Shown here: positions 8,171-64,000 of the stretch, in pieces | How positions within the stretch are numbered: the first letter of the stretch is position 1 | Layout: every line of letters starts with the position of its first letter | Origin: Eledone cirrhosa | Taxonomy: Eukaryota | Assembly (NCBI GenBank): GCA_964016885.1 | Contig: OZ024742.1 | Coordinates: forward strand, 328,600,001 to 328,664,000 | Direction: 5' to 3' | DNA: 64,000 nt | Notes under the pieces: generated by a model | The model's input: the letters and a program-made list of their open reading frames with translations, nothing else | Told to the model about the DNA's origin: nothing | Databases searched by the model: none | Translations under genes and position numbers: made by a program

Positions 8171-9178
8171 ATGTGTCTTTAAAATAGTTTTTGTTGTTAT
8201 ATATTTATTCAAACATTGACTGATTAAGCACTTAATACTGGTGGGTAGAGTATAGAAATTTATTTTCTAAGTATAAGAGTGACAGCGATTTTGGTCGTTT
8301 CAATCCGTAACTAGTCTCTGTGATTATTTCCCCTATGACGTAGAGGTTCGACAAAAAAGGTATCGGTAAAATAAGTTCCAGGCTTGAAACAATATGCACT
8401 GAAATCAGCAACAGACCAAGACACAGTGGTGTAACTAGCCTTTAAAGCCAGTGGGGGGGGGGGGCAAATTCGATCTAAAGGGGGCCCCACCAATTCCATA
8501 CGCTCATTTCCATCGGCTGCAAGGAAATATGTTCATTCACGCATATAGAATAGATAATAATTTATAATAGAGTAGACAGCATCATAGATTACAGAGTTAG
8601 CATGTTCCGTGAAAACTGTATTAACTGCGAAGACGGGGGTCTATCTTCAGGAAAAAAAACAACATCCAATAAAACTAGTTTACAATCGATTATTCACCAA
8701 CAAACATTCGTATGTACAACAGATTGTCCATCTAAAACTTTACTTTCACATTCGAGCACATCACTATAGTTCTAATTTGCGATGTTTTACTTTAGAAAAT
8801 ATTTAAATCACGATGCTGAAGTCAATTTTTTCAACGAGTTTTCGCTCTATGTACATCATTGCCAGAGCATTCAACCGCTCTTCACTCATCGTACTACGCA
8901 AATAATTCTTTATCAGTTTGAGCCTGCTGAAGGTTCGCTCAGCCTGCGCCGAACTAACCGGAATAGTTATGGTATAAGGCAAACACGTTCGGATAGGCTC
9001 TATCTAAGTCATTAGAAATCATAAACGGAACGATCTCAGAAATCGATATGGATTTATCTAAACACACTTCCTTGTAAAAATCTTTGAATGATAAATACTC
9101 GTCGAAGATAGTGTCATTTTCGATGTCACCCTTTCAACGTCACCCTTTCGATGTTCCTTAAGGGTTAAAAAAAAAATG

Positions 9179-10878
9179 TAACCCTTGGGGAACATATGTT
9201 CAAATTTAATGGAAAAACATATGCCCAAGAGGAGGTAGCAGCCATTGGTGTTAGCATTGCAGGCGACATAGCTAACCTATTCATGGTATGGTGGGACAGT
9301 AGACTTAAACTTAAACTTAAAGAACAATTATAAGACCCCTTAACCCTGATAATGTACTCCCGCTACGTTGATGATATAAACATCGTAGTTAAAACACCCC
9401 CACTAGAGAACAGTCAGGAATTAGAGAAAAACACAATGGAAAGCATCCAGCAAATAGCTAACTCCATCCACCAGAGTATTAGAGTTACTATAGACTACCC
9501 AAGCAAACACCCCAACCATCGATTACCTGTACTAGACACAGAGCTCTGGTTAGATACCATTAATAAGAAAAAACAAATCCTCCATTCCCATTATACCAAA
9601 CCCATGTCTTCCAAATATCTGATCCACCGAAACTCAGCTGTTTCGGACCATACCAAAATCAACATACTGATTGCGGATTTGGTACGGGTGATGAGAAACG
9701 GGTCCCGCATGTGCAACCCCGAAGAACTAGAGAGACACATACAACACTTCATCCACCGTATGCAGTTCTCTGGTTACAATTAGAGAGATAAAATCAGAGT
9801 GTATAGAGGAGCCAGAACCAAATGGGAAACAATGGTAAATAATGACACAAATGGGACCTGCCCCTTGTATAGGAGCAAATTTTGGAATAGAATAGAAAGA
9901 ACTAGGAATAAGGCTAATAGAATAAACTCATGGTATGATAGCAATAAATACCATCGATACAACCCCTAGAGGTGAATTAGCTTACAAATTTAGAAGGGCC
10001 CTAGATAAACATAAACTCAATATTAAGATAGTAGAAAGACCAGGTACCTCCATAAAAACACTTATTAGCAAGACATACCCTTTTCAAAGACCTCCCTGTA
10101 TAGATAAGAAATGTATAATCTGTAAATTAAGCCCCCATATTAACTGTAAAACTAGAAATGTAGTATATAGCATAAGATGTACTGAAGGACAATGTAGAGA
10201 TAAAAATATAGTGTACATAGGTGAGACAGCACGTAGTATAGGGGAACGGATAAATGAACACTGGCGAGACCTTCAAGATAGTAAAGAATCATCTGTACTC
10301 TATCAACATGCTAAAATAGAACATAAGGGTAAATTAGAGAACATAGAAATAAAAATAGAATCTACACACAGAAAAGACGCAATGTTTAGACAAATCGCAG
10401 AGGCAATAAACATAAGTGAATTACAACCAAAATTAAATAGAAAACATGAGTGGAACAGCAACATCACAACTTACAATTAAGGACAAAATGAAAACACACA
10501 CGCACATAGAACAAACAACCAACCAGTAACATGTAAATAAACAAATAAATAAACGAATATAAACACACACAGACACCCGGATGTAACACGTGCGAAAACT
10601 AAGCACACAACACACACACAAAAACAAGATGGCGTAGGACAGAACAAAGGAGAGGCACAAAAAACAAAGAAAAGAATCCCCAGTCACTGAAGAGGTAACA
10701 TAATGTGTGACGAAAGAACTTTGACAATATATAAACAACCATCTGGTTGTGGAACCAACCAACCAACCGGAAATTTATAAATTCCTAAATTTATAAATTT
10801 ATTATAATAAATTGAAGTGAAAGCAAATGGTGCGTGTGTTTCTTATTGGCAACATGACCCTCCCAAAGTATACCAATG
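9179..10878 (+). mobile_element. PLE family A, 5'-truncated degenerate copy (RT C-terminus, GIY-YIG, pLTR)
   Basis: SRYVDD at 9358 and NVVYSIRC..YIGETAR. Colinear with 21505-23340, with stops and a deletion. Confidence 0.95.
10683..10725 (+). ncRNA. Minimal type I hammerhead ribozyme in PLE-A pLTR (core intact)
   Basis: gtca-CTGAAGA-g-stem II (gtaaca..tgtgac)-GAAA-gaac-TT-tgac; stem I is gtca/tgac. Confidence 0.75.
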
Positions 10879-10880
10879 TA

Positions 10881-11072
10881 TAATAAATGTGAAGACTAAA
10901 ATCCGAAGAGGGCTCGATAACGATAATATATATATAATAGATATAAAACAGTAGAGCAAATATTTATTAAAATAACAGATTAAAGTTTAAGCTTTCACCC
11001 TTAACAGGATCTTCAGAAGATTCCGCTAAGAGTAAAGCAGTGATTCTTTGCTTATCCTTAATCTGTTATTTG
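10881..11072. mobile_element. Small non-coding fold-back element with a hammerhead-like core (second copy at 50185-50340)
   Basis: 10881-11016 is the reverse complement of 50188-50340. The minus strand reads CTGAAGA-T-CCT-gttaa-GGG-T-GAAAGC. 11014-11072 is an inverted partial copy. Confidence 0.6.
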
Positions 11073-17155: not shown

Positions 17156-17269
<114 letters not shown>

Positions 17270-19283
17270 TTTCTGAATTTGTTTAGCAAGATTCTTTATC
17301 TGAAATCGTGTGTTGAAACCGATATTGTTATACTTTGTGAGGGTCATGTTGCCAATAAGAAACACACGCACCAGTTGATTTCACTTCAATTTATTATATA
17401 TCTATAAATTTATAAATTTACAAATTTACAAACCTATAAATTTCTGGTTGGTTGGCTGGTTCCACAACCAGATAGTTGTTTATATATAGTCATAGTCCCT
17501 TCGTCACACACTCTGTGACCCCCCAGTGACTGGGGACCCCCCTCTTTGTTCCTGTGCCTCTCCTTTCTTCTATCCCACGCCATTCTGTTTCTGTGTGTGT
17601 GTTGTGTGCTCAGTTTGCGCATGCGCCACATCCGGGTATCTGTGAGTGTTTGTGTTCATTTATCTATTTGTTTATTTATTTATTTATTTATTGTTGGTTG
17701 GTTGTTTGTTCTATGTGTGTGTCTGTGTTTTCATTTTGTCCTGTGTGTGTTTTCATTTTGTCCTTAATTGTAAGTTGTGATGTTGCTGTTCCACTCATAT
17801 TTTCTATTTAATTTTGGTTGTAATTCTTTTATGCTTACTGCCTCTGCAATTTGCCTAAACATTGCATCTTTTCTGTGTGTGGATTCTATATTTATTTCTA
17901 TGTTCTCTAATCTACCCCTGTGCTCTATCTTTGCATGTTGGTAGAGCACAGATGATTCTTTATTATCTTGGAGGTCTCGCCAGTGTTCATTTATTCGTTC
18001 CCCTATACTACGAGCTGTCTCACCTATGTACACTATATTTTTGTTTCTACATTGTCCTTCAGTACATCTTATGCTATACACTACATTTCTAGTTTTACAG
18101 TTAATATAGGGGCTTATTTTACAGGTTATACATTTCTTATCTATACATGAGGGTCTTTGGAACGGGTATGTCTTGCTAATAAGTGTTTTTACGGAGGTAC
18201 CTGGTTTTTCTACTATCTTAATATTGAGTTTATGTTTATTTAGGGCCCTTCTAAATTTGTAGGCTAGTTCGCCTCTAGGGGTTGTATTGATGAACATTAC
18301 ACTCTGGTATTTATTGCTATCATACCATGAGTTTATTCTATTAGAAAGACCAGGTACCTCCGTAAAAACAGTTATTAGCAAGACATACCCGTTCAAAAGA
18401 CCCTCATGTATAGATAAGAAATGTATAACCTGTAAAATAAGCCCCCATATTAACTGTAAAACTAGAAATGTAGTGTATAGCATAAGATGTACTGAAGGAT
18501 AATGTAGAAACAAAAATATAGTGTACATAGGTGAGACAGCTCGTAGTATAGGGGAACGAATAAATGAACACTGGCGAGACCTCCAAGATAATAAAGAATC
18601 ATCTGTGCTCTACCAACATGTAAAGATAGAGCATAGGGGTAGATTAGAGAACATAGAAATAAAAATAGAATCCACACACAGAAAAGATGCAATGTTTAGG
18701 CAAATTACAGAGGCAGTAAGCATAAAAGAATTACAACCAAAATTAAATAGAAAATATGAGTGGAACAGCAACATCACAACTTACAATTAAGGACAAAATG
18801 AAAACACACACAGGACAAAATGAAAGCACACACACACACATAGAACAAACAACTTACAATTAAGGACAAAATGAAAACACACACAGGACAAAATGAAAAC
18901 ACACACACACATAGAACAAACAACCAACCAACAATAAATAAATAAATAAATAAACAAATAGATAAATGAACACAAACACACACAGACACCCGGATGTGGC
19001 ACATGCGCAAACTGAGCACACAACACACACACAGAAACAGAATGGCGTGGGATAGAAGAAAGGAGAGGCACAGGAACAAAGAGGGGGGTCCCCAGTCACT
19101 GGGGGGGGGGGGTCACAGATTGTGTGACGAATGGACTATGACTATATATAAACAACTATCTGGTTGTGGAACCAGTCAACCAACCAGAAATTTATAGGTT
19201 TGTAAATTTGTAAATTTATAAATTTATAGATATATAATAAATTGAAGTGAAAGCAACTGGTGCGTGTGTCTCTTATTGGCAAC

Positions 19284-22200
19284 ATGACCCTCCCAAAGTA
19301 TAACAATATCGGTTTCAACACACGATTTCAGATAAAGAATCTTGCTAAACAAATTCAGAAACGAAATATCGTAAGCCTTAGCCAGGCTAACAAGATACTG
19401 AAAACCACCATGTTCTGTTGTCTACGAAAAACCATAACATCTCGACAACTGCACTTCATAAAACTAAAGTGGCTTAAACAGGCAAAGCTAAATCGGGATA
19501 CTATAGAGTATACCAATAGATATCCCGACAAAATTGACGGTATCAACATGGCCGACACCTCATTATCAGAAGAGTTCAACAACGAAAATACCAACATTTA
19601 TGGAAACACGGAAATAGATAATAATGAAATGTCTGTGTTATGTCTGCCGCCCAAATTTGCGACATTCAAGAAGGTAAATATGATTAGTTGTCTGTCAGAA
19701 ATAGAAAAATCATTTACAAAACTACGCTGGAGCATCAAAAACAAAAGCAACAATATACGCACACACATATACAACACACATCCCAACAACAACAGACACA
19801 CAGACACAAACAACAATAACAATAAAACACACATCAACAACAACAACAATAGCAACATACCCAGATACAACAACAACAGACACGCAGACACAAACAACAA
19901 TAACAACACACAGAACAACGATAACACACACGGAGACAACAATAACAACAACACACACATCAACAACAACAACAATAGCAACATACCCAGATACAACAAC
20001 AACAGACACGCAGACACAAACAACAATAACAACACACACAACAACGATAACACACACGGAGACAACAATAACACACAACAACAACACACATCAACAACAA
20101 CAACACACACGCATTCAATGCCTCTCACCACCACCACAATCTTAACAAACACACATACACAGAAAACAAGTAATGACAGTAGCACAGAAATTAGAGAAAT
20201 AAGGGAAGGAAATAGGATTAAAAGGAAAAGGAGATGGGAGACTAAGGACAAAGAGAATAACGAAGACGAACACACAGACACACAAAATAGGGTAGATAAC
20301 AACATTGAGCCAGTGGAAAGAGACAGGAGTAATTATGAGAGACATAGAAACAAACATGAGGCTGTTGGTAGAAATAGAAATAGAAACAACACAACTAACA
20401 ATAATAATAGCACTAGTACATTTAAAGCAGCAGCCTGGAACTCTCCGTTTTATAACCCCTCCGATAAATCATTCGACCTACGACGAGTTCACGCCACGAC
20501 TTACCCATTTAACAAACGCACGCAGTTGCCGTCGCAGGTCGATGAACAAACAGAAGCACAATTTAGTATAGCTAAATCCGAACTTAGAAATATTATAGAA
20601 CAGTATAGCAAGAAGCATAATAGAATAGAGGCCCAGCAACTGGGAGAAAAATCTGCAAATGGCTTGCGTAAGTTCATGCAGCGCTCGCGTAATGGAGAGA
20701 TAGCATGTTTTCCAACAGACAAGTCTGGCAGAATGTCGGTTGACAGCCTGCCAAACTACATCCAGGCAATGCAACCCCACATCACTAACACAAGAGAGGT
20801 AACACCACAGGAGCATGAGGATAGAGAAAAAGCCGTCAATGCCCATATGGTGATGTGGACGAATATAATGCAGCCCAACAAAAGGACTGCCAACAACTTC
20901 CAGGCCTGGAACAATGACGTGCCGGCGTTGTATGGGCTTCGAAAAGACCATAAAACGGGCTGGGACCCTGTCGCGGGACCACCAACACGGCCAGTCTGTG
21001 GGGCTAACATTGCTAGTAACTACAGACTGTCCTACTTCCTCTCCCTGATCATACGCCCCATCATTGAGTTGTCCCCAGACGTATGTGACAGCACGGAGGA
21101 CCTCCTCAGCAGAATCGGCGCGGGTAACCGATCTGGGGACCTAACAAACTGCATAATAGGCAGTATCGATGTTGTGTCCCTGTATCCATCTATTGACGTG
21201 GATTTTGCTGTGGAGAAATGCGTAGAAATGATCAGCGAGAGCAAGGTTGAGTTCCGTGGGATTGATAACAGTGAGCTGGGACTTCTACTTAAGCTTACCC
21301 ATAGTAATAGTTACCTAGACACTTATGACCTTAGCAACCTGTGCCCTACAAGACCAGCAAGAGGCAGACCACCTACCATTACCTCAATGGCCAAGAAAAC
21401 CCACACAGTTAGATGGAACGGGTGGACCAGAGCCATACGGACACCCGAAAACCACGATGAACTGAAGAAAATGATTGCACATGCGGTAGGGGCCAGCATA
21501 AAATTAACCCTTAAGGAACATATGTTCAAATTTAATGGCAAAACATATGCCCAAGAGGAAGGAGCAGCTATTGGTGTTAGCATTGCAGGCGACATAGCTA
21601 ACTTATTCATGGTATGGTGGGATAGTAGACTTAAACTTAAACTTAAACTTAAAGAACAATTAGAAGACCCCTTAACCCTGATACTGTACTCCCGCTACGT
21701 AGATGATATAAACATCGTAGTTAAGACATCCCCACCAAAGAACAGCCATGAACTAGAGAAAAATACAATGGAAAGCATCCAGCAAATAGCAAACTCCATC
21801 CACCAGAGCATTAGAGTTACTATAGACTACCCAAGTAGACACCCCAACCATCGATTACCTGTACTAGACACAGAGCTCTGGTTAGATACCATTAACAACC
21901 AAAAACAAATCCTCCATTGCCATTATGCCAAACCCATGACTTCCAAACATCTGATCCACCAAAACTCGGCCATTTCGGACCATACCAAAATCAACATACT
22001 GATTGCGGATTTGGTACGGGTGATGAGAAATATGTCCCGCATGTGCAACCCCGAAGAACTAGAGAGACACATACAACACTTCATCCACCGTATGCAGTTC
22101 TCTGGCTACAATCAGAGAGATAGAATCAGAGTGTATAAAGGAGCCAGAACCAAATGGGAAAAAATGGTAAATAATGACATAAATGGGACCTGCCCCTTGT

Positions 22201-22826
22201 ATAGGAGCAAATTTTGGAATAGAATAGAAAGAACTAGGAACAAGGCCAATAGAATAAACTCATGGTATGATAGCAATAAATACCAGAGTGTAATGTTCAA
22301 CAATACAACCCCTAGAGGCGAACTAGCCTACAAATTTAGAAGGGCCCTAAATAAACATAAACTCAATATTAAGATAGTAGAAAGACCAGGTACCTCCGTA
22401 AAAACACTTATTAGCAAGACATACCCGTTCCAAAGACCCTCATGTATAGATAAGAAATGTATAACCTGTAAAATAAGCCCCCATATTAACTGTAAAACTA
22501 GAAATGTAGTGTATAGCATAAGATGTACTGAAGGACAATGTAGAAACAAAAATATAGTGTACATAGGTGAGACAGCTCGTAGTATAGGGGAACGAATAAA
22601 TGAACACTGGCGAGACCTCCAAGATAATAAAGAATCATCTGTGCTCTACCAACATGCAAAGATAGAGCACAGGGGTAGATTAGAGAACATAGAAATAAAA
22701 ATAGAATCCACACACAGAAAAGATGCAATGTTTAGGCAAATTACAGAGGCAGTAAGCATAAAAGAATTACAACCAAACTTAAATAGAAAATATGAGTGGA
22801 ACAGCAACATCACAACTTACAATTAA
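19284..22826 (+). CDS. Penelope-like polyprotein: N-terminal domain, Asn-rich spacer, reverse transcriptase, Cys linker, GIY-YIG endonuclease
   Basis: Uninterrupted frame with TDKSG, LYGLRKDHK..RPV, DVVSLYPSI, QEEGAAIG, SRYVDD, LPVLD, CIDKKCITC and VVYSIRC..YIGETAR..RINEH. The ATG at 19284 (MTLPKYNNI) is conserved in family B. Confidence 0.93.
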   Translation: MTLPKYNNIGFNTRFQIKNLAKQIQKRNIVSLSQANKILKTTMFCCLRKTITSRQLHFIKLKWLKQAKLNRDTIEYTNRYPDKIDGINMADTSLSEEFNNENTNIYGNTEIDNNEMSVLCLPPKFATFKKVNMISCLSEIEKSFTKLRWSIKNKSNNIRTHIYNTHPNNNRHTDTNNNNNKTHINNNNNSNIPRYNNNRHADTNNNNNTQNNDNTHGDNNNNNTHINNNNNSNIPRYNNNRHADTNNNNNTHNNDNTHGDNNNTQQQHTSTTTTHTHSMPLTTTTILTNTHTQKTSNDSSTEIREIREGNRIKRKRRWETKDKENNEDEHTDTQNRVDNNIEPVERDRSNYERHRNKHEAVGRNRNRNNTTNNNNSTSTFKAAAWNSPFYNPSDKSFDLRRVHATTYPFNKRTQLPSQVDEQTEAQFSIAKSELRNIIEQYSKKHNRIEAQQLGEKSANGLRKFMQRSRNGEIACFPTDKSGRMSVDSLPNYIQAMQPHITNTREVTPQEHEDREKAVNAHMVMWTNIMQPNKRTANNFQAWNNDVPALYGLRKDHKTGWDPVAGPPTRPVCGANIASNYRLSYFLSLIIRPIIELSPDVCDSTEDLLSRIGAGNRSGDLTNCIIGSIDVVSLYPSIDVDFAVEKCVEMISESKVEFRGIDNSELGLLLKLTHSNSYLDTYDLSNLCPTRPARGRPPTITSMAKKTHTVRWNGWTRAIRTPENHDELKKMIAHAVGASIKLTLKEHMFKFNGKTYAQEEGAAIGVSIAGDIANLFMVWWDSRLKLKLKLKEQLEDPLTLILYSRYVDDINIVVKTSPPKNSHELEKNTMESIQQIANSIHQSIRVTIDYPSRHPNHRLPVLDTELWLDTINNQKQILHCHYAKPMTSKHLIHQNSAISDHTKINILIADLVRVMRNMSRMCNPEELERHIQHFIHRMQFSGYNQRDRIRVYKGARTKWEKMVNNDINGTCPLYRSKFWNRIERTRNKANRINSWYDSNKYQSVMFNNTTPRGELAYKFRRALNKHKLNIKIVERPGTSVKTLISKTYPFQRPSCIDKKCITCKISPHINCKTRNVVYSIRCTEGQCRNKNIVYIGETARSIGERINEHWRDLQDNKESSVLYQHAKIEHRGRLENIEIKIESTHRKDAMFRQITEAVSIKELQPNLNRKYEWNSNITTYN
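19740..20420 (+). repeat. (AAC)-rich in-frame low-complexity region with an internal 120-bp duplication
   Basis: THINNNNNSNIPRYNNNRHADTNNNNNT occurs twice. Confidence 0.85.
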
Positions 22827-23123
22827 GGACAAAATGAAAACACACACAGGACAAAATGAAAACACACACACACATAGAACAAACAACTTACAATTAAGGA
22901 CAAAATGAAAACACACACAGGATAAAATGAAAACACACACACACATAGAACAAACAACCAACCAACAATAAATAAATAAATAAACAAATAGATAAATGAA
23001 CACAAACACACACAGACACCCGGATGTGACGCATGCGCAAACTGAGCACACAACACACACACAGAAACAGAATGGCGTGGGATAGAAGAAAGGAGAGGCA
23101 CAGGAACAAAGAGGGGGGTCCCC

Positions 23124-23175
23124 AGTCACTGGGGGGGGGGGGGGTCACAGAGTGCGTGACGAAAGGACTATGACT
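23124..23175 (+). ncRNA. Inactivated hammerhead (CUGAAGA changed to CUG(G)n) in the 3' pLTR; same at 19094-19143 and 17488-17531 (minus)
   Basis: Stems agtca/tgact and gtcac/gtgac are retained while the core is a G run of 14, 12 or 6 G. Confidence 0.75.
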
Positions 23176-23500
23176 ATATATAAACAACTATCTGGTTGTG
23201 GAACCAGCCAACCAACCAGAAATTTATAGGTTTGTAAATTTGTAAATTTATAAATTTATAGATATATAATAAATTGAAGTGAAAGCAACTGGTGCGTGTG
23301 TTTCTTATTGGCAACATCACCCTCCCAAAGTATAACAATATATATATATACCTATCTATCTATTTATCTGTCTCTCTCTATCTATCAATCAACCTATCTA
23401 TCTATCTATATTTCTCTCTCTCCCTCTCTTTGTCTCCCTCTCCCTCTCTCTCTCTATCTCTCTGTCTGTGTGTGTATGTGCATATGTTTATGTATATATA

Positions 23501-27332: not shown

Positions 27333-30300
27333 TTCTTTTATTTGCCACCAGGGCATCAAAAGTGGGCAAGTACAAAGGGGGGGGGGAGTTTACACAAAAA
27401 GGCGTCCTCAATAAGGAGGAGGCAATAATAAAATATAAAAATAAAATAAAATATAACAAAAAATAAAATTTATAACAAAATCCTCAATAGAGAGAAGGCG
27501 CCTTGGGGGGTCGCACACACCCCCGAAAAAAGTGTGCAACCCTTTTCCTCAGGAGCACAGAGAGGGGGTGCTCCCTCGTTCCTTCCTCCTTTCCACCTAC
27601 AGGCTTATGTAAAGAGAAGGCCCATTCACACGGGCCATTCTTGCCACTTTCACCCACCTTTCATAAAAACGACTGGGGTGGAGCACCTCTCTCTCCATCC
27701 TGATCCTTCTTCCGAAATGATATCGGAAGAAACGGACCAGTTGTTGGCCAGAGAGAAAGGTGCCTGACCTCAGTCCTTTCAGACGCGTCCACCATACAAC
27801 CTCTTTCGCCATGGCTATTACGCAGAGAAACACCGCCTCTGCTTCATCTTTGAAGGGGGGAGGCGGCTTGATCATTACAATAGACTCGGTGGTCAACCGG
27901 ATCGGTCCCACCCTTGACAGCAGTTGTTCGACATAGCCCCACAGATTGGCTACGCCCGAGCAGTGTACCAATGCGTGTGCAACGGTTTCCTCGTCGCACA
28001 CGCATCTGGGACAGATCTTTTTGGCGGGGTCCCTACCCGGGCGCCCGTGTCTGTAGAGCCTTTCTCGAACGGGTAAAGCCCCTCGGTAGCACTGCCAGGC
28101 CAGGGACTTCTGGAAGTTGTCCATAGGTCCCGGGCTGAATGTCCTACCGAACAGGCTGGCCATTTTGTCCTCCTCCATGTCTAGGGCTTCTCCGAGGGCG
28201 TCGTCGCACCTGCTGCGTACCAGCCCTCTATAGAATGTTGCGGTGGAGTCTCCACTGATAACCGGATCCGCCTGCCAGAGGGCGGTGAGCGCCTGGGCAC
28301 ACTCAGTGTGCCAGGCGCCCAGTTTTCTCGGTCTTTGCTTGACCCAGGATTGCAGCTCGGTGAGTGAGACGAGTCTGGGAAAGGTTCGTCTCACAAACGA
28401 GGCCCACACCGGTTGACCGGTGAGGAATACGTAGAGGTGCCGTAGCCTTAATGCGTGTTTACGCATCATTAGCCACGGCATCCCCAGCCCTCCTTTCGAA
28501 GGGTGTTGACAGCAGATGGATCTCCTCACCATAGGAGCCCGCCTCTTCCAAAGGAATTGGAAGAGTGCGCGCTCCATCTTGGTGAGGGTTTCCCTTGGGC
28601 AGGGCACTACGGTCAGGCGGTAGTAGATGACGGACGCTATGTAGGTGTTCGCCACCTCCGCCCGACCTTTCAGGGATAGTTTGCAACTGGCCCACTTCTG
28701 GGTCAGTGCAAACACCCTGTTCGTAACCTCCGCCCAGTTTTTCTCCACCTGGAGGTCCGGTCCGAACCAGACCCCGAGCAACTTCACCGGGCCCTCCGTC
28801 CAGCGTCCGACGACGCCATCGGAGGGCATCGGTCTGCCCCTCCACGTGCCGAGTTGCAAACCGATTGACTTGTCCCGGTTCAGCTTAGTCCCTGTGAACT
28901 TTTCGTACTCCTCCAGTAAGGTGCCGACCGCCTCGATTTCGGAGGCCGTCGACACCATTACCGTCACGTCATCGGCGTAGGCCGACACCGCTTTCCGCAA
29001 TCCCGGTTCCAAAGGGATGCCCTGCAACAACTCCAACTTCCGCAGTAGTGGCTCGAGAGTCAACACATACAGAAGGGAGGAGAGAGGGCACCCTTGTCGG
29101 ATGGACCGCGCGATTTTGAACGGCTCCGAGAGGTAGCCGTTCACCTTTACCCTAGAGCAGATGCGGCTGCTGTGCATAGCAGTGATCCAGCCCCTGAAAA
29201 CGGGTCCGAAGCCTGCCGCCGCTAGCACCGCATCCAGGTAACCATAGTCGACCCTATCGAACGCCTTAGATTGATCCAAGTTGATCAGAGCCCCACCAAA
29301 GCCGGGTTCGTTCCCAACCCTCTCTATGATGTATCGCATGAGGTGGAGGTTATCGTGGATGGACCTGGACGGGATAGCACATGTCTGCGCATCTCCCACC
29401 AGGTTGCCCACGACAAGCGCCAACCTCTTTGCTAGCACCTTGGCCAAAATCTGTAACTCTGTATTTAGCAGAGTTATGGGCCTGAAGTTACTTATTTCGT
29501 CCCCCTTGTTCTCGTCCTTCCTCACTAGCATGACTACGCCCTTGGTCACAGTACAGGGAATTCTCCCGTTCTGTTGCCAGTTGCAGTAGACCGCCTCGAG
29601 GAGATTGGGGAACAAGTCCGGCATAGCTAGATATAATTCGTAAGGAAGACCATCGAGACCCGGGGATTTGCGTTTGCCGCATTGGCTCAGCACGTCCTCT
29701 ATCTCAGCGGCCGAAATCGGCTCCTCGCAGGACTTCGCCTCCCTGTCCGAGAGGCGCGGCAGGCCGTCGAGATATGGACCGAAGTCCACGTTCCCAACCG
29801 GCTCCCCGTCCCTCCCGAACAGTCGGGCAAAGTGCCTTTGAAAGGCCTCACACATCTGCTTAGGCTCAAGAATCGCCCGTCCATCCAGGTCTCGCAAAGA
29901 CCGGATGGTGGATTTAGTTCCACTGTTGGCCTCTGTCACGCGGGCCCAGCTAACAGCTTTGGTCCCCTCGTTCTCTAGAGCACGTATTTTACTTCGGACA
30001 ACGCAGCCTTCGTGCTTCGCGTCGAAAAACTGGCTCAAAGCCGTTCTCGACGCTAGCACTCTGGCCACGTCGCCGCTTCTAATAGCCTCTTCTACTCTAT
30101 CTATTAGCTCCCTTTCCTTCCTATTCCTATCCGCAGCTAGAACCTTACTAAATTCTATCGAGACTACTCTAATCTCTCTCTTTAGAGATACCCACCACCT
30201 GCTGTTGACGATCGCTCCAGTCAACCGTTCCGTAACTAACGTAATAATCCGATCCCTGTAGGCTCTACTTGCCGGCAAGGACAAGTTGAGCTTCCAGTAA

Positions 30301-30898
30301 CCGGGGCCCTGTCTATGCGTTCTATCAAGGTTGACCATGCAGGTCACCAACTTGTGGTCTGAATAGCCAACCATGAGCATTTCTGAACAACTTAAAAAGT
30401 CCCTGTCCTTATTTCTAACTAAAAATCTATCTAGGTACGACCTAGATGATCCGCTGCGATTTGACCAAGACCAGGTTGGCACCGTCGGAAAATCTAGTCG
30501 AAATCTATCGGCCAGGTCAAATCGGCCGAGTAACCCCTTGAGGCTGTTGCACCCCTCTCTATCGGGACATGCCCCTGCATAGTCCCAACGTGCATCCAGG
30601 ATACCATTCCAATCCCCCACTAAAAGCAGGGAACGGGACGTCCCTAGAAAAGACTCCAGACGCTGGAAAAAGTCGGGCCGCTCAGTCCCAAAAGGGGCAT
30701 ATGCGGCTACCAGCCTAAAGGCTCTACCTTCACCACTGCCAAGGTCCAGCACCACCAGTCGACCCCCTGGGTCCAAGTGAACTATCTGTGTTGCAAGGCC
30801 CATATGTTTTTTCAGCAGAACGACAACCCCACCCCCACCTCCGGGCTGACAGAGAGATGCGTGCATCTCAAAGTCGTCAAAGGTGGGGGCTAGCTGTA
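27333..30898 (-). mobile_element. L1/Tx1-clade LINE, 5'-truncated, with an 11-bp candidate TSD
   Basis: GC-rich insert. 3' end GCCCTGGTGGCAAATAAAAGAAA. GATAGATATGT at both 27322-27332 and 30899-30909. Confidence 0.93.
27597..30866 (-). CDS. L1/Tx1 ORF2: APE endonuclease (N-truncated), RT, C-terminal Cys/His zinc knuckle
   Basis: VGDWN, SYLDRF, SDHK, GPGYWKLN, KSPGLDG, NFRPITLLN, DQSKAFD, RQGCPLS, AYADD, CPRC..ETVAHALVHC; no stops in 1089 codons. Confidence 0.93.
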   Translation of the reverse strand: MHASLCQPGGGGGVVVLLKKHMGLATQIVHLDPGGRLVVLDLGSGEGRAFRLVAAYAPFGTERPDFFQRLESFLGTSRSLLLVGDWNGILDARWDYAGACPDREGCNSLKGLLGRFDLADRFRLDFPTVPTWSWSNRSGSSRSYLDRFLVRNKDRDFLSCSEMLMVGYSDHKLVTCMVNLDRTHRQGPGYWKLNLSLPASRAYRDRIITLVTERLTGAIVNSRWWVSLKREIRVVSIEFSKVLAADRNRKERELIDRVEEAIRSGDVARVLASRTALSQFFDAKHEGCVVRSKIRALENEGTKAVSWARVTEANSGTKSTIRSLRDLDGRAILEPKQMCEAFQRHFARLFGRDGEPVGNVDFGPYLDGLPRLSDREAKSCEEPISAAEIEDVLSQCGKRKSPGLDGLPYELYLAMPDLFPNLLEAVYCNWQQNGRIPCTVTKGVVMLVRKDENKGDEISNFRPITLLNTELQILAKVLAKRLALVVGNLVGDAQTCAIPSRSIHDNLHLMRYIIERVGNEPGFGGALINLDQSKAFDRVDYGYLDAVLAAAGFGPVFRGWITAMHSSRICSRVKVNGYLSEPFKIARSIRQGCPLSSLLYVLTLEPLLRKLELLQGIPLEPGLRKAVSAYADDVTVMVSTASEIEAVGTLLEEYEKFTGTKLNRDKSIGLQLGTWRGRPMPSDGVVGRWTEGPVKLLGVWFGPDLQVEKNWAEVTNRVFALTQKWASCKLSLKGRAEVANTYIASVIYYRLTVVPCPRETLTKMERALFQFLWKRRAPMVRRSICCQHPSKGGLGMPWLMMRKHALRLRHLYVFLTGQPVWASFVRRTFPRLVSLTELQSWVKQRPRKLGAWHTECAQALTALWQADPVISGDSTATFYRGLVRSRCDDALGEALDMEEDKMASLFGRTFSPGPMDNFQKSLAWQCYRGALPVRERLYRHGRPGRDPAKKICPRCVCDEETVAHALVHCSGVANLWGYVEQLLSRVGPIRLTTESIVMIKPPPPFKDEAEAVFLCVIAMAKEVVWWTRLKGLRSGTFLSGQQLVRFFRYHFGRRIRMEREVLHPSRFYERWVKVARMARVNGPSLYISL

Positions 30899-31139
30899 GA
30901 TAGATATGTATAAATATATGTCCCAGGATAGATGCATCGATAGGTAGATATAGGTAGATGTTTTTTGACTCATGGATATCTTTTCAACTCTGTTTTGTGA
31001 GAAAGAGGTGGAGAGTTAGCTATAAAAGTGCCTCTTCTTAAACAAAACTTGCACAATGTTGTCATGTGACTCTTGCGTTTTATTATAACATATAGATGGG
31101 TCGGTGTATGTATTTTGAATTGTGTTTGTGTGTATGTGT

Positions 31140-35500: not shown

Positions 35501-36538
35501 TGAATTTAAGAATTCTGGTTGAGGGTAAGCAAAGAAAAAGTGTATAGGATGTTGATTAAGTGACAATGAGAGGATGAGAGCTAAGAGGTTCAGGAGTGTG
35601 AAGAAATGAATAATATGGGAGAAATATAACAGGTATAAGGGTGGACAAAGGTAGAGCGATGGTGTAGTTTTGAAGGGCGTTAACATGTATCATGGTACGA
35701 CAACCAGAGATACCAGAGTGTCATGTTTGTGGACGCTACCCCTGGAAGGAAATTAGCTAACCAGTGTAGAAAGGCCCTGAGAAAGACCCACTTAAAGATT
35801 AAGGTGGTAGAAAAGCCAGGAACCACCATAAAATCCCTGATCAGCAAAACCTACCCTTTTAAGAAAACCGACTGTACTAATAGGAAATGTATCATATGTA
35901 AGGTAAACCCCCGGATAAACTGTAAAACTAGAAACGTAGTCTATAGCATAATATATACAGAGGGTACTTGCAGAATCATGACAACAACATACATAGGCGA
36001 GACAGCTCGTAGCATAGGTGAAAGGATAGACCAACACTGGGGGGAACTAAAAGGACGAAAAAACGGTTCAGTGCTATACGAACATGCTAGACCACAACAC
36101 GACGGTAACATAGACAACATAGAAATTAGAATAATATGTAAACATAGAAATGACCCAACAGATAGGCAAATCAGAGAGGCCAGTGAAATAGAACTTAGAA
36201 GGCCAAGGCTAAACTGAAAAAATGAATGGTATAACAACAACACCCAAACAAACAAGACTGACTTAAGAGAAGTATAAATAAATAAATAAATAAATAGTTA
36301 AATAAATAAATACATACACAAGCACAATAACAACAAACACATATAAACACACACTAGTAAAGATAGAATACATTAACCAATACACAGTCACCCAAACACG
36401 AACACACGTCAAACAAAACACTATACACACACGCAAACGCATGCGCAAAGAAGACAAAAAAAAAACAAATAAATAAATATATAAACAAACTAAATAAAGA
36501 TGGCGTAGACATAGAATGCAACGGGAGGAAACAATAGC

Positions 36539-36580
36539 ACCACTGACGATGTTGCAGATGTGCAACGAAAGAATTTTGAT
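36539..36580 (+). ncRNA. Minimal hammerhead in PLE-B 5' pLTR
   Basis: CTGACGA-T-GTTGCA-gatg-TGCAAC-GAAA-gaat-TT; weak stem I. Confidence 0.7.
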
Positions 36581-36759
36581 AGACTAATATATGTGTTTGT
36601 GTCTATATTGTATCTGTATTTTTGACCGTTGGTCAGTCAATGGCAACATTGAGGACCGAATACATTAGATTACTGATATAAAAGACACAGAAGCGAAAAG
36701 CGAAAACCAACCAAACAGTGAGTGTGTTCTGTTATTAATTCTGGAAATATTACACAAAT

Positions 36760-39700
36760 ATGACCCTCCCCAAGTATAACAATATTTGTTTCGACACACG
36801 ATTTCATATCAAAAACCTCGCAAAACTAATTCATCGCCGTTATGGCATTAGCTTGTGCCAAGCTTAAAGGTTATTGAAAGACACTGTTTTCTGTTATATA
36901 AAAACGACAATAACAACAGAACAAATCCGCTTCTTAAAACACTCTGTTTCCTCCAAAATATACACAACAAACATATCAAAACAAGTAAATAATTTATTAT
37001 TGGACAAGACACAAGCTGAACGACTAAAACACACAATAACAGTTAATATGAAAAGAACAACATACACAAAAGTCAACGAACTTTACAGACAGAAACGCAT
37101 TAACGGTAAGGAAGCCGAAATCTCACCACACCAAACGAGAGGGGTGACTTCATGAGCGTCATTCGACGTGAAACGAAATACGCCCGAAACGAATACAATA
37201 GGCATTTCAATAAGAAATTAGAATGGATGAATAAAAAAAAACTAGAAGAAAGAAAAATAGAATATTCTCAAAAATACCCAGATGACATCAACAATATCCG
37301 TATGACTGATGTAAAACTACCGGAAGAATTTACCAATGACCACACAGTAAATATTTATGGGAACACTTTAATCAGTGAACAAGAACAACATATCCTGCAG
37401 CTACCACCAACATTTGCTATCTACAAAAATATTAACCCTATTGAGTGCAAAACGGAGCTGGAAAAGTGTTTCACAAAAATACGTTGGAAAGTAAACAACA
37501 ACAACAACTATACGGACAACAACAACAATAATAACGGTAGTAGTAATATAAACAATAACTCTGAGTATAGAAATAACAGCTATAATAGTAATAGTCATAA
37601 CAATAACAATAGCAGGAGAGTGAGAAATAGTATTAATGGTAATAATATTAACGATAGACAGAACAACAACAACAACAACCACAATAATAATTGTTTCTAC
37701 TATTGGCACAAGGCCAGAAAATTACCCAGTACATTACTGGTACTTTATTTTATCGACCCCGTAAGGATGAAAGGCAAAGTTAACCTCGGCATAATAATAA
37801 TAATAGAAACATTAACTACAGATACAGCAGCAACGACGACAGTAGTAATAACGGTAACAATACGAATAACAACAACAACAACCACAGTGGTAATAATAGA
37901 AATAATACATGTAGCACATTAATGATAAACACAACAAAAACAAGAAACATAATAAAAGTAACAACCACAATGGTAGAAATAACAGTAAAAACAACAATAA
38001 CGGCGGAGAAAACAACAACAATACATCTAACAATCACAGCAACAATACATCTAGCAATCATAACACCAATACATCTAACAATCACAGCAACAATACATCT
38101 AGCAATCATAACAATAATAATAATGCTAATGATAGGAACAACAACAACCACCATAATAACAATAATAGCAACACACACAACTATGACGATAGATATAATG
38201 AAAACCCCTTAGAGAAACTATTCTTCAACCCAGCTGACAAAACATATAAGATGGGTAATATCTATTCTACGAGGTTACCCTTTAATAAAAGAGTTTGCAT
38301 ACCACAACAAATAGATGACGAGACAGAGGCACAGTTCACCATAGCTAGAAATAAGATTAGACAAATAGTAGACCAGTATACTAAGAGACAGAGCAGACCA
38401 GAGGTCCAACAACTTGGGAGGAAACATGTAGAAGGCTTGGTTAGCCTCAAGCAGCTCACAAGGGATGGTGAGGTAGTATGTCTACCCACGGATAAGTCTG
38501 GTAGGATGTCAATAGAGAGTATGCCGAACTACATCAAGGCTATGCAACCCCACATCACCCACACGAGTGAAATTGCACAGCAAATACATGATGGGAGAGA
38601 GAAAATCCTTAACGCTCACATGATGATGTGGACCGACATCCTAAAGCCAAGCAGACGCACTGCCAATAACTTCCAGGCGTCTAACAATGGCATACCACCC
38701 TTGTATGGGCTCCGCAAAGACCACAAGACAGTCGACGACCCGACAACAAGACCCGTATGCGGTGCAAATATAGCTAGCAACTACAGGATCTCCTACTTCC
38801 TCTCAATGGTTATACGCCCCATAATCAAAATGTCCCCAGATGTATGTGACAGTACAGAGGACCTCCTCAGCAGAATCATTGAGTGCAACAAAAACAGGAA
38901 CCTATCCAACTGCATAATAGGCAGCATGGATGTGGTATCACTGTAACCATCCATTAACATTGATTTTGCTGTGTTAAAATGTGAGGAGATGATCATTGAG
39001 AGTGAGGTGGAGTTCTGTGACGTCGACACAGACGAACTGGTCCTCCTACTTAGACTTACCTACGACACTGACTACCTAGACAGCCATGACCTTAGACGTT
39101 TCTGCCCCAGTAGACCCATAAGACGTAGACCCCCCACCATAACCTCAATGGCTAAAAGGACTCCCATGGGAAGGTGGATTGGGTGGACCAAAGCTATACG
39201 GAACCCCAAAAACAATGATCAGGTAAGAAAAATGGTCGCACATGCAATAGGGGCTAGTATCAAAACTACCCTAAAGGGCCACATATTCAAGTTCAACGAG
39301 AAGATCTACGCCCAAAATGAGGGAGCAGCCATTGGCGTCAGCATAGCTGGTAACGTTGCCAACCTTTTTATGGTATGGTGGGAAAGGAGACTTAAAGATC
39401 TCCTTGATGAGAGCTCCATAGACCTCATCATATACTCTCGTTACGTAGACGATATCAATATAGTAATAAGAACATCCCCACAAGAGAACACTAACAAGTT
39501 TAGAACGTAGCACAATAGAAAGCATCCAGCAGATATCTAATTCCATACACCAGAGTATAACTGTAACTATCGACTACCCTTCAAAACACCATAACAATAG
39601 ACTACCTGTATTAGACACGGAACTCTGGATTAACACTATAGACGAGAGAGCCCAAATTCTTCACTCACACTATGCTAAACCCATGGCCTCCAAATACCTG

Positions 39701-40581
39701 ATACTCAAAACTCAGCAATGTCCAGTAGTGCTAAGTTTAATATTCTGATCGCAGACTTGGTACGAGTGATGAAGAACGTGTCCAGCATGTGCGACCCAAC
39801 AGAAATGGAAAGACACATCCAACATTTCATCAACCGCATGCAGTTCTCTGGCTACAACCAAAGAGACAGAGTCAGAGTATACGAAGGAGCCACGGAGAAG
39901 TATAAGACCCTCATAGAACTGGACATGAAAGGAATTTGCCCATTATACAGGAGCAAATCATGGAATAGCTTAGATAGGGCAAGACATAAGGTAGGAAAAG
40001 CCACCTCATGGTACGACAACCAGAGATACCAGAGTGTCATGTTTGTGGACGCTACCCCTGGAGGTAAATTAGCTAACCAGTGTAGAAAGGCCCTGAGAAA
40101 GACCCACTTAAAGATTAAGGTGGTAGAAAAGCCAGGAACCACCATAAAATCCCTGATCAGCAAAACCTACCCTTTTAAGAAAACCCACTGTACTAATAGA
40201 AAAGTTATCATATGTAAAGTAAACCCCCGGATAAACTGTAAAACTAGAAACGTAGTCTATAGCATAAGATGTACAGAGGGTACTTGCAGAATCATGACAA
40301 CAACATACATAGGCGAGACAGCTCGTAGCATAGGTGAAAGGATAGACCAACACTGGTGGGAATTAAAAGGACGAAAAAACGGTTCAGTACTATACAGACA
40401 GGCTAGACAACAACACGATGGTAACATAGGCAACATAGAAATTAGAATAATATCTAAACATAGAAATGACGCAGTATATATACAAATCTGATAGGCCAGT
40501 GAACAGAACTTAGAAGGCCAAGGCTAAATAGAAAAAATGAATGGAATAACAACAACACCCAAACAAACAACACTGACCTAA
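36760..40581 (+). pseudogene. PLE-B RT plus GIY-YIG ORF, disrupted by frameshifts, stops and a SINE
   Basis: MTLPKYNNICFDTRF, TDKSG, LYGLRKDHK, SMDVVSL, SRYVDD and YIGETAR occur in successive ORF pieces. Confidence 0.92.
37690..37790 (-). mobile_element. Truncated SINE inserted in the (AAT) tract of the PLE-B ORF
   Basis: Nearly identical to 7000-7100. Confidence 0.85.
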
Positions 40582-40851
40582 GAGAAGTATAAATAAATAA
40601 ATAAATAGTTAAATAAATAAATACATACACAAGCACAATAACAACAAACACATATAAACACACACTAGTAAAGATAGAATACATTAACCAATACACAGTC
40701 ACCCAAACACGAACACACATCAAACAAAACACTATACACACACACTAACGCATGCGCAAAAAAGACAAAAAAACAAAACAAATAAATAAATATATATACA
40801 GACTAAATAAAGATGGCGTAGACATAAAATGCAACGGGAGGAAACAATAGC

Positions 40852-40893
40852 ACCACTGACGATGTTGCAGATGTGCAACGAAAGATCTTTGAT
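40852..40893 (+). ncRNA. Minimal hammerhead in PLE-B 3' pLTR
   Basis: CTGACGA-T-GTTGCA-gatg-TGCAAC-GAAA-GATC-TT; palindromic GATC loop 3. Confidence 0.8.
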
Positions 40894-41193
40894 AGACTAT
40901 ATATATGTGTTTGTGTCTATATTGTATCTGTATTTTTGACCGTTGGTCAGTCAATGGCAACATTGAGGACCGAATAAATTAAATTAACCGATATAAAAGT
41001 CACAGAAGCGAAAAGCGAAAACCAACCAAACAGTGAGTGTGTTCTGTTATTAATTCTGGAAATATTATACAAATATGACCCTCCCCAAGTATAACAATAT
41101 TTGTTTCGACACACGATTTCATATCAAAAACCTCGCAAAACTATATATATATATATATATTAGAAAATGTGTGAGATCCTTGGTACAGTTAGG

Positions 41194-59504: not shown

Positions 59505-64000
<4,496 letters not shown>

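Follow-up and report, generated by a model that had tools for sequence, protein, structure and literature searches.

Does a Penelope-like element (PLE) need its self-cleaving ribozyme in order to insert, and what can erase the ribozyme from a copy that has inserted? The question is raised by one locus in a 64,000-nucleotide stretch of Eledone cirrhosa DNA, termed here the window, which occupies C3:328,600,001-328,664,000 in an assembly of 3.0 Gb. Positions 17262-23341 hold a composite, full-length Penelope-like insertion, flanked on both sides by (TA)n, and in each of its three pLTRs the core of a hammerhead motif reads as a run of G. The features of the insertion, and of two unedited hammerheads elsewhere in the window, are the following.

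17262..18342, minus strand: inverted, 5'-truncated arm of the same insertion (blastn of the element against the window, and alignment), with (TA)n to its left; it contains a 60-nt tail (17262-17321), a pLTR with a G6 core (C run 17519-17524) and the ORF 3' end
18339..19309, plus strand: 5' pLTR, a second, partial unit (ORF 3' end and UTR), with the A>G cluster and G12 at 19101-19112
19251..22826, plus strand: open ORF of 1191 aa (Pfam GIY-YIG and RVT_1; substitution counts)
22375..23341, plus strand: 3' pLTR, with (TA)n adjoining its right end (blastn of the element, flank inspection)
23111..23120, plus strand: GAGGGGGGTC (family GAAAGGAATC), four A>G changes, upstream of stem I and outside the ribozyme core
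23124..23175, plus strand: dead minimal type I hammerhead (sequence, family majority and the descriptor of PMC4209133, partial text); stem I AGTCA 23124-28 and TGACT 23171-75, C3-U4 23129-30, G14 23131-23144 replacing GAAGAGG, stem II, GAAA 23161-64, predicted cut after CUA 23170
23175..23184, plus strand: TATATATAAA, a candidate TATA box of a putative pLTR promoter
10683..10725, plus strand: unedited hammerhead in an older subfamily copy (9173-10882), core complete, one stem II mismatch, cut triplet CUU
60840..60884, plus strand: unedited hammerhead in a different copy, whose core is disrupted by the point change G12>C at 60870

The insertion has the properties of an EN+ PLE. A single ORF joins a reverse transcriptase to a C-terminal GIY-YIG endonuclease; scanned piecewise, the 1191-aa ORF gives GIY-YIG at E=6.8e-5, over the Pfam cut-off, and RVT_1 at E=7e-4, under the cut-off, and sequence searches with the whole protein gave no Pfam or PDB match. 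Two cysteines are found between the motifs GIY and YIG (VVYSIRCTEGQCRNKNIVYIG in the ORF translation), the CCHH arrangement by which EN+ PLEs are defined (PMC8557442, partial text). The pLTRs formed via a partial tandem, the inverted 5'-truncated copy and the tail at one end are also those of EN+ PLEs. The linker CIDKKCITC precedes the endonuclease, and this linker (CX2-5CxxC) and the (TA)n targets are the features of the Neptune/Nematis type. Among 93 family arms sampled by a 3' motif, 82 have their 3' end at 23341 or at the tail end. A TATA-like motif similar to the candidate listed above occurs in the pLTRs of Adineta (PMC3846280, partial text).

Purifying selection on the open ORF is ruled out by its 39 private substitutions, 11 of which are synonymous against 10.3 expected; the probability of the frame staying stop-free is ~0.15, as calculated from substitutions alone. 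The substitution spectrum of the ORF is mixed, unlike that of the A>G-only cluster at 23070-23135. A short in-frame insertion relative to most family copies is present in the RT region (21637-21644), where the protein reads LKLKLKLK. The window has four further pieces of this family, insertions or fragments (1536-1712, 9173-10882, 59589-61188 and 61438-64000), together with an older related Penelope family at 35690-41141 (plus strand; partial tandem, ORF broken, identical to the main element at ~70% in DNA and 61% in protein) and an open LINE-type ORF of 1128 aa with endonuclease, RT and zf-RVT domains at 27597-30983 (minus strand).

The family majority motif, AGTCA-CTGAAGA-G-GTCACA..TGTGAC-GAAA-GGAC-TA-TGACT, fits the pattern of a minimal type I hammerhead, CUGANGA-N-stem II-GAAA-short helix III-UH-stem I; metazoan PLEs carry such minimal hammerheads, in which one additional base separates positions 9 and 10.1 (PMC4209133, partial text). 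An exact intact 25-mer around the core occurs 14,513 times genome-wide, and the family therefore has at least 14,513 pLTR cores. The hammerhead family is absent among the 150 of 226 Rfam matches listed, where only microsatellite-driven miRNA matches appear, and single-strand folding z-scores of the hammerheads are unremarkable, as is expected for a dimer-type motif.

The copy at 23124-23175 lacks the required core of A6, G8 and A9, its core being CT(G)14. CT(G)6, CT(G)12 and CT(G)14, which the initial annotation had described in the three pLTRs, are indeed present, at the C run 17519-17524 (minus strand), 19099-19112 and 23129-23144, respectively. Other parts of that description need adjustment. 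The change of GAAAGGAATC to GAGGGGGGTC precedes every G run in the three pLTRs, but it is not a part of the type I hammerhead, in which the GAAA is located downstream. Cores at 10687 and 60845 were taken as intact references; the first is complete (10683-10725), but the second carries G12>C (GACCAAAG, 60870). The stems were said to persist, and mostly they do, stem I being intact, but in the 3' copy a private T>C at 23155 alters stem II. In the GAAA, at position A15.1 (23164, an editing hot spot), the 3' copy reads A, the 5' copy T and the inverted copy G. Elsewhere in the genome, a lone A6>G (CTGGAG) is carried by 34 copies (L031-L060); the majority are of older subfamilies and resemble either a small core-dead lineage or a recurrent change.

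The G runs lie in a cluster of A>G changes. Between 23070 and 23135 (plus strand), 11 of 32 A residues in 66 nt have become G, with zero other substitutions relative to the majority of unrelated genomic copies, and identically in all three pLTRs; the 7-nt core in the cluster consists of G only. With ~0.004 changes per A in background copies, 11 of 32 has P ~5e-19 for this 66-nt tract alone. One of the 11 changes, at 23095, is the normal base in another subfamily, and a further private A>G at 23207 is shared by the pLTRs. Altogether the three pLTRs have in common 15 A>G changes, three of which also occur in the family at 4-35%, a C>T that is common and a T>A (22658) that is private; they differ by 4, 12 and 10 private changes of mixed types. 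A hyper-edited flank is also present in an independent public contig set (X1, with a loose end at 23131); contigs spanning 23062-23130 occur in none of the runs X1-X4. Shared A>G changes, few and mixed private changes and the neutral changes of the ORF indicate that the three pLTR copies were made together from a near-majority template that carried the cluster, and later decayed by ~1%. The shared cluster was most probably left by RNA editing of a single template molecule, which was then written back into inherited DNA.

Similar insertions are found across the genome. Patterns that fix one or two A>G changes brought up 27 insertions with A>G clusters, including that of the window. One edited insertion (L008/L166, with 38 A>G inside the ORF only) was found without such a pattern, among 65 loci (L004-L030, picked for likeness to the edited pLTR, L066-L074 and L082-L110). 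With matches that show only the pattern-fixed change excluded, the total is 28 independent insertions, 27 besides the window element, each with its own pattern; the count does not represent an unbiased rate, since the patterns were chosen for A>G. The 60 loci selected for a single A>G at 23307 included no hyper-edited copy. The longest tracts are near 1 kb with close to 150 changes (L111/L112), and up to about one-third of the A residues are changed (L112, L144). A>G makes up 710 of the 807 private substitutions within the edited spans of the 28 insertions, pattern-fixed sites removed.

A mirror control with the same 31-mer shows the strand bias: two fixed A>G changes give 6 matches and two fixed T>C give 0, whereas one fixed A>G gives 21 matches, 6 of them with more changes, and one fixed T>C gives 8, 1 with more. 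The neighbouring bases are also biased. The edited fraction is 0.44 after A, 0.36 after T, 0.25 after C and 0.21 after G (pooled, 94 of 446 sites with 5' G are edited versus 616 of 1696 of the rest, p=4e-10), and is 0.44 before a 3' G versus 0.25-0.32 before other bases (p=8e-7). It should be pointed out that background A>G is likewise lowish after G (1.9 versus 4.0 per 1000 after A), and part of the 5'-neighbour signal is therefore nonspecific. At the window locus alone the 5'-G depletion is not evident, as 4 of the 11 edited A residues follow the disfavoured 5' G. Depletion of 5' G is the ADAR hyper-editing motif common across animals, and the 3'-G preference is weaker in invertebrates (PMC5625713, partial text).

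In three fold-back insertions (L116, L135 and L153) a double-stranded substrate is apparent. Their antisense arm shows T>C and their sense arm A>G, i.e. A>G along one physical strand, and they appear to be hairpin RNAs edited on both sides and copied whole. They are located at 1313-2059 of C1574 (L116), at C4:162.09 Mb (L135/L174) and on C19 (L153); L174 contains a second hyper-edited copy with 49 A>G, 1.5 kb away. Genes with the adenosine-deaminase domain (PF02137) are found at several genome loci; this domain family takes in ADAT1 as well. The A>G clusters have the appearance of traces that ADAR-type editing left in RNA and that reverse transcription then fixed. None of the longest tracts (L112, L113, L064 and L144) goes past 23269, and they reach neither the tail nor the final 72 nt of the pLTR. 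Protection of a priming zone at 23270-23345 against editing is no general rule, as L147-L153 carry edits there.

The arms of single insertions reveal how the edited RNA may have been copied. Ten other inverted pairs have the same sense-strand A>G in both arms, with Jaccard indices of 0.63-1.0; between insertions the mean is 0.15 and the maximum 0.35 (45 comparisons). Arms disagree more at edited sites than at genuine G residues (25 of 386 versus 16 of 1202), and without CpG contexts and a repeat-rich stretch the difference is retained (12 of 268 versus 14 of 1023, p=0.003), although the discordance may include some residual alignment error. Greater discordance at edited sites is expected for separate passes over inosine, and the findings fit separate passes over one inosine-containing sense RNA, perhaps primed from both target strands. 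A model with an antisense template has been raised (PMC3846280, partial text); arm-shared edits argue against it, as the edits say sense. In a few pairs the arms are identical. L161 (4219-4614) and L162 (5392-5787), at C2:324.75-324.76 Mb, are edited pLTRs on opposite strands, 10 kb apart, with 21 of 21 edits in common, and the L143/144 and L156 arms are likewise identical across ~1 kb; this identity suggests conversion or direct arm-to-arm copying.

At the window insertion, the edits in common and the neutral decay that followed suggest that a single edited RNA served for all three copies, through a circle or a template jump. Sharing between the 5' and 3' pLTRs implies that one physical pLTR was read twice, either in a unit-length circle or by a jump through terminal redundancy. 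Private shared edits are all at or before 23207, and for a jump the starting 5' end would lie immediately behind the TATA motif at 23175. A counter-example is the full-length insertion L165/L167 (C1:2.08-2.09 Mb), where the 5' and inverted pLTRs have 31 edits in common and the 3' pLTR, which is another variant, has none. Thus, tandems can also come from two templates.

A fully edited core is a G7, and it is kept as such in four arms of three insertions (L061, L064 and both L143/144 arms). Expansion is recurrent, as it is found in three of the six insertions with a fully edited core: G10 in L121, G18 in L113 and G6, G12 and G14 in the window insertion, lengths as assembled. The sequence of events put forward in the initial annotation, editing followed by slippage of the homopolymer, is therefore well supported, with the G7 intermediate in three other insertions and expansions in two others. 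Copies that retain G7 are at least as diverged as the expanded ones, which favours stuttering by the reverse transcriptase over gradual slippage in DNA. Editing also creates a CCCCAG/CUGGGG hairpin across the 5' part of the G run; speculatively, it might pause the reverse transcriptase.

In all, the G run is most probably a DNA fossil of ADAR-type A-to-I editing on PLE sense RNA, likely copied three times into one insertion by the element's own reverse transcriptase, which stuttered on the G/I run. The process can be envisaged as follows. Sense PLE RNA would pair locally, over the pLTR, with antisense PLE RNA, a likely source of which is the family's many head-to-head inverted copies. ADAR would then deaminate about one-third of the A residues in the duplex, core A6, N7 and A9 among them. 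The edited RNA would still be reverse transcribed, with priming at 23341 and at the tail end, the two 3' ends of the family. The right arm would represent a 4.03-kb full unit plus 0.97 kb, made by passing the single edited pLTR twice (circle or terminal-redundancy jump), and the left arm would have passed it once. Inosines would become G, and the resulting G7 would slip to 6, 12 and 14. Finally, the copy would decay neutrally (~1%) and leave no daughters. The editing would be a by-product of double-strandedness, untargeted to the ribozyme.

Other readings have to be weighed against this one. An error-prone DNA step, i.e. a Y-family-like polymerase placing G opposite T at second-strand synthesis, or RT errors with skewed dNTP pools, also predicts strand-biased A>G at integration, and the 5' G at 4 of 11 window sites agrees with it. 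However, tracts near 1 kb with up to one-third of the A residues changed, the switch of fold-backs in the middle of the hairpin, with T>C before it and A>G after it, and above all the same sites in both arms of inverted pairs and in three pLTRs are not what independent errors would leave, and this explanation is largely refuted and highly improbable. It is less improbable, yet still doubtful, that the editing belongs to an earlier generation, in which an edited copy was fixed in DNA, had both pLTRs edited by self-insertion or early gene conversion, and was remobilized with a dead ribozyme. The private T>A at 22658 common to all three copies, the near lengths of G12 and G14, as from a single expansion, the open ORF, and the normal insertion of hammerhead mutants in vitro (PMC11167929, partial text) can be cited in favour. 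Against this, the edit pattern occurs at no other assembly locus, the ORF changes are neutral and an open frame has a probability of ~0.15 from substitutions alone, the inverted arm has G6, and private differences are kept beside the tract. If true, such a history would be direct in vivo evidence that cleavage is dispensable. A third possibility leaves the A>G changes as real and takes only the G12 and G14 lengths as assembly homopolymer error or late DNA slippage. Runs of at least 10 are prone to slippage, and G12 and G14 are known from the assembly alone; but two further insertions in the same assembly have G10 and G18, and exact G7 stands in four arms of three insertions whose divergence is equal or greater. 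It is unlikely, if the least unlikely of the alternatives.

The initial annotation had also asked whether ADAR acts as a host defence against the ribozyme and whether the G tract forms a G-quadruplex. Core A residues are edited somewhat more often than their neighbours (40 of 82 versus 223 of 613, p=0.04); among the 19 edited insertions that were selected on grounds other than a core edit, 14 have a core A changed, and 14 are edited on both sides of the cut. G4Hunter-type maxima are 2.12 for the G14 copy and 1.84 for the G12 copy. But the core preference is modest, and the edits extend far beyond the ribozyme, hundreds of bases through ORF and UTR, and in L166 they are confined to the ORF. RNAs with a dead core did integrate, and edited cores number in the tens, compared with 14,513 exact intact ones. 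Only the copies with G12 and G14 are predicted to form a G-quadruplex, which competes with the CCCCAG/CUGGGG hairpin and would be found at a single, decaying locus. Neither a ribozyme-directed ADAR defence nor a G tract selected as a G-quadruplex is upheld by these data, and both are very remote.

With RNA editing of one template as the preferred reading, the opening question can be answered in part. Cleavage was unneeded after editing; as to the broader suggestion that self-cleavage is dispensable for PLE mobility, it is only compatible with the data. None of the arms that start at 23130-23200 begins at the predicted cut, 23171 (93 arms sampled, 59 extending past the cut). A 5'-end peak at the hammerhead cut was considered, as six alignment starts fall within 5 nt of it, but among the inspected copies with starts at 23130-23200 none is at 23171. 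Hammerhead mutants of the anole PLE insert normally in vitro (PMC11167929, partial text), and whole PLE clades are without the ribozyme (PMC8557442, partial text). General dispensability is nevertheless unproven, because the dead variant has no daughters and because editing could come after cleavage and ligation, in a circle. Pattern searches found no daughters of the dead variant and no other assembly locus with this edit pattern. A dispersed ribozyme-dead subfamily was likewise rejected: the eight CACTGGGG matches are three in the window insertion, two truncation junctions (L058/L065 and L062) and three independent edited copies. The dead ribozyme is thus a one-off, non-propagating copy.

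Of wider significance is that a retrotransposon repeatedly writes RNA editing into the inherited genome, as an RNA-stage counterpart of APOBEC-edited retroelements. Edits are random and therefore barcode single template molecules, so that questions of Penelope replication become testable from assemblies alone: sense versus antisense template, the origin of the inverted arm and the 5' pLTR (here the same edited molecule), and the use of the hammerhead. There is perhaps an even chance that the edits can be read as single-molecule barcodes of the whole Penelope cycle in vivo, whereby a sense, uncut or circular one-pLTR RNA is copied by both primed target strands and for more than one round, pLTRs arise by re-reading, cleavage is unneeded when the element integrates, and RNA editing acts repeatedly as a germline mutagen that gives rise to new G homopolymers.

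Several known systems show partial likeness. A literature search that covered few subscription papers turned up no account of Penelope copies edited by ADAR and integrated in a genome. The avian retroviral A-to-G cases (RAV-1, Felder 1994; avian leukosis virus, Hajjar and Linial 1995) are alike in their clustered A>G, attributed to ADAR action on RNA that is later reverse transcribed (as cited in PMC8586724, partial text); here, in contrast, the element is a non-viral retrotransposon, there are at least 28 independent insertions in an assembled animal genome, and the edits are common to repeats of one insertion. APOBEC-edited LTR retroelements likewise carry a clustered, strand-biased deaminase footprint in integrated copies, but theirs is G>A from C-to-U on cDNA, in vertebrates, whereas A>G here comes from the RNA stage (PMC4866542, partial text). 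That work filtered for G-to-A and reported invertebrates as devoid of it. Lizard Penelope RNA is a heavy ADAR substrate with >40 K sites; these are RNA reads, and here the edits are in integrated DNA copies (PMC5625713, partial text).

With the metazoan PLE hammerheads (PMC4209133, partial text) the family shares a short helix I, a long helix II, the extra nucleotide between 9 and 10.1, G10.1-C11.1, a tiny self-complementary helix III and the pLTR location; the family motif is a predicted ribozyme, and the core of the window copy differs in being a G homopolymer. The Anolis Poseidon element PAc (PMC11167929, partial text) also has a pLTR-ORF-pLTR order with a tail, two 3' ends, extension of both target strands, and hammerhead mutants that insert. 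The PAc findings are in vitro only and its hammerhead is at the ORF start, while in the family described here the hammerhead is ~150 nt upstream of the ATG and the linker is CX4CxxC, of the Neptune/Nematis type. To these systems the window locus adds a full-length element with tandem and inverted pLTRs that carry one barcode, and the genome adds a recurrent step from G7 to a long run and a two-template counter-example.
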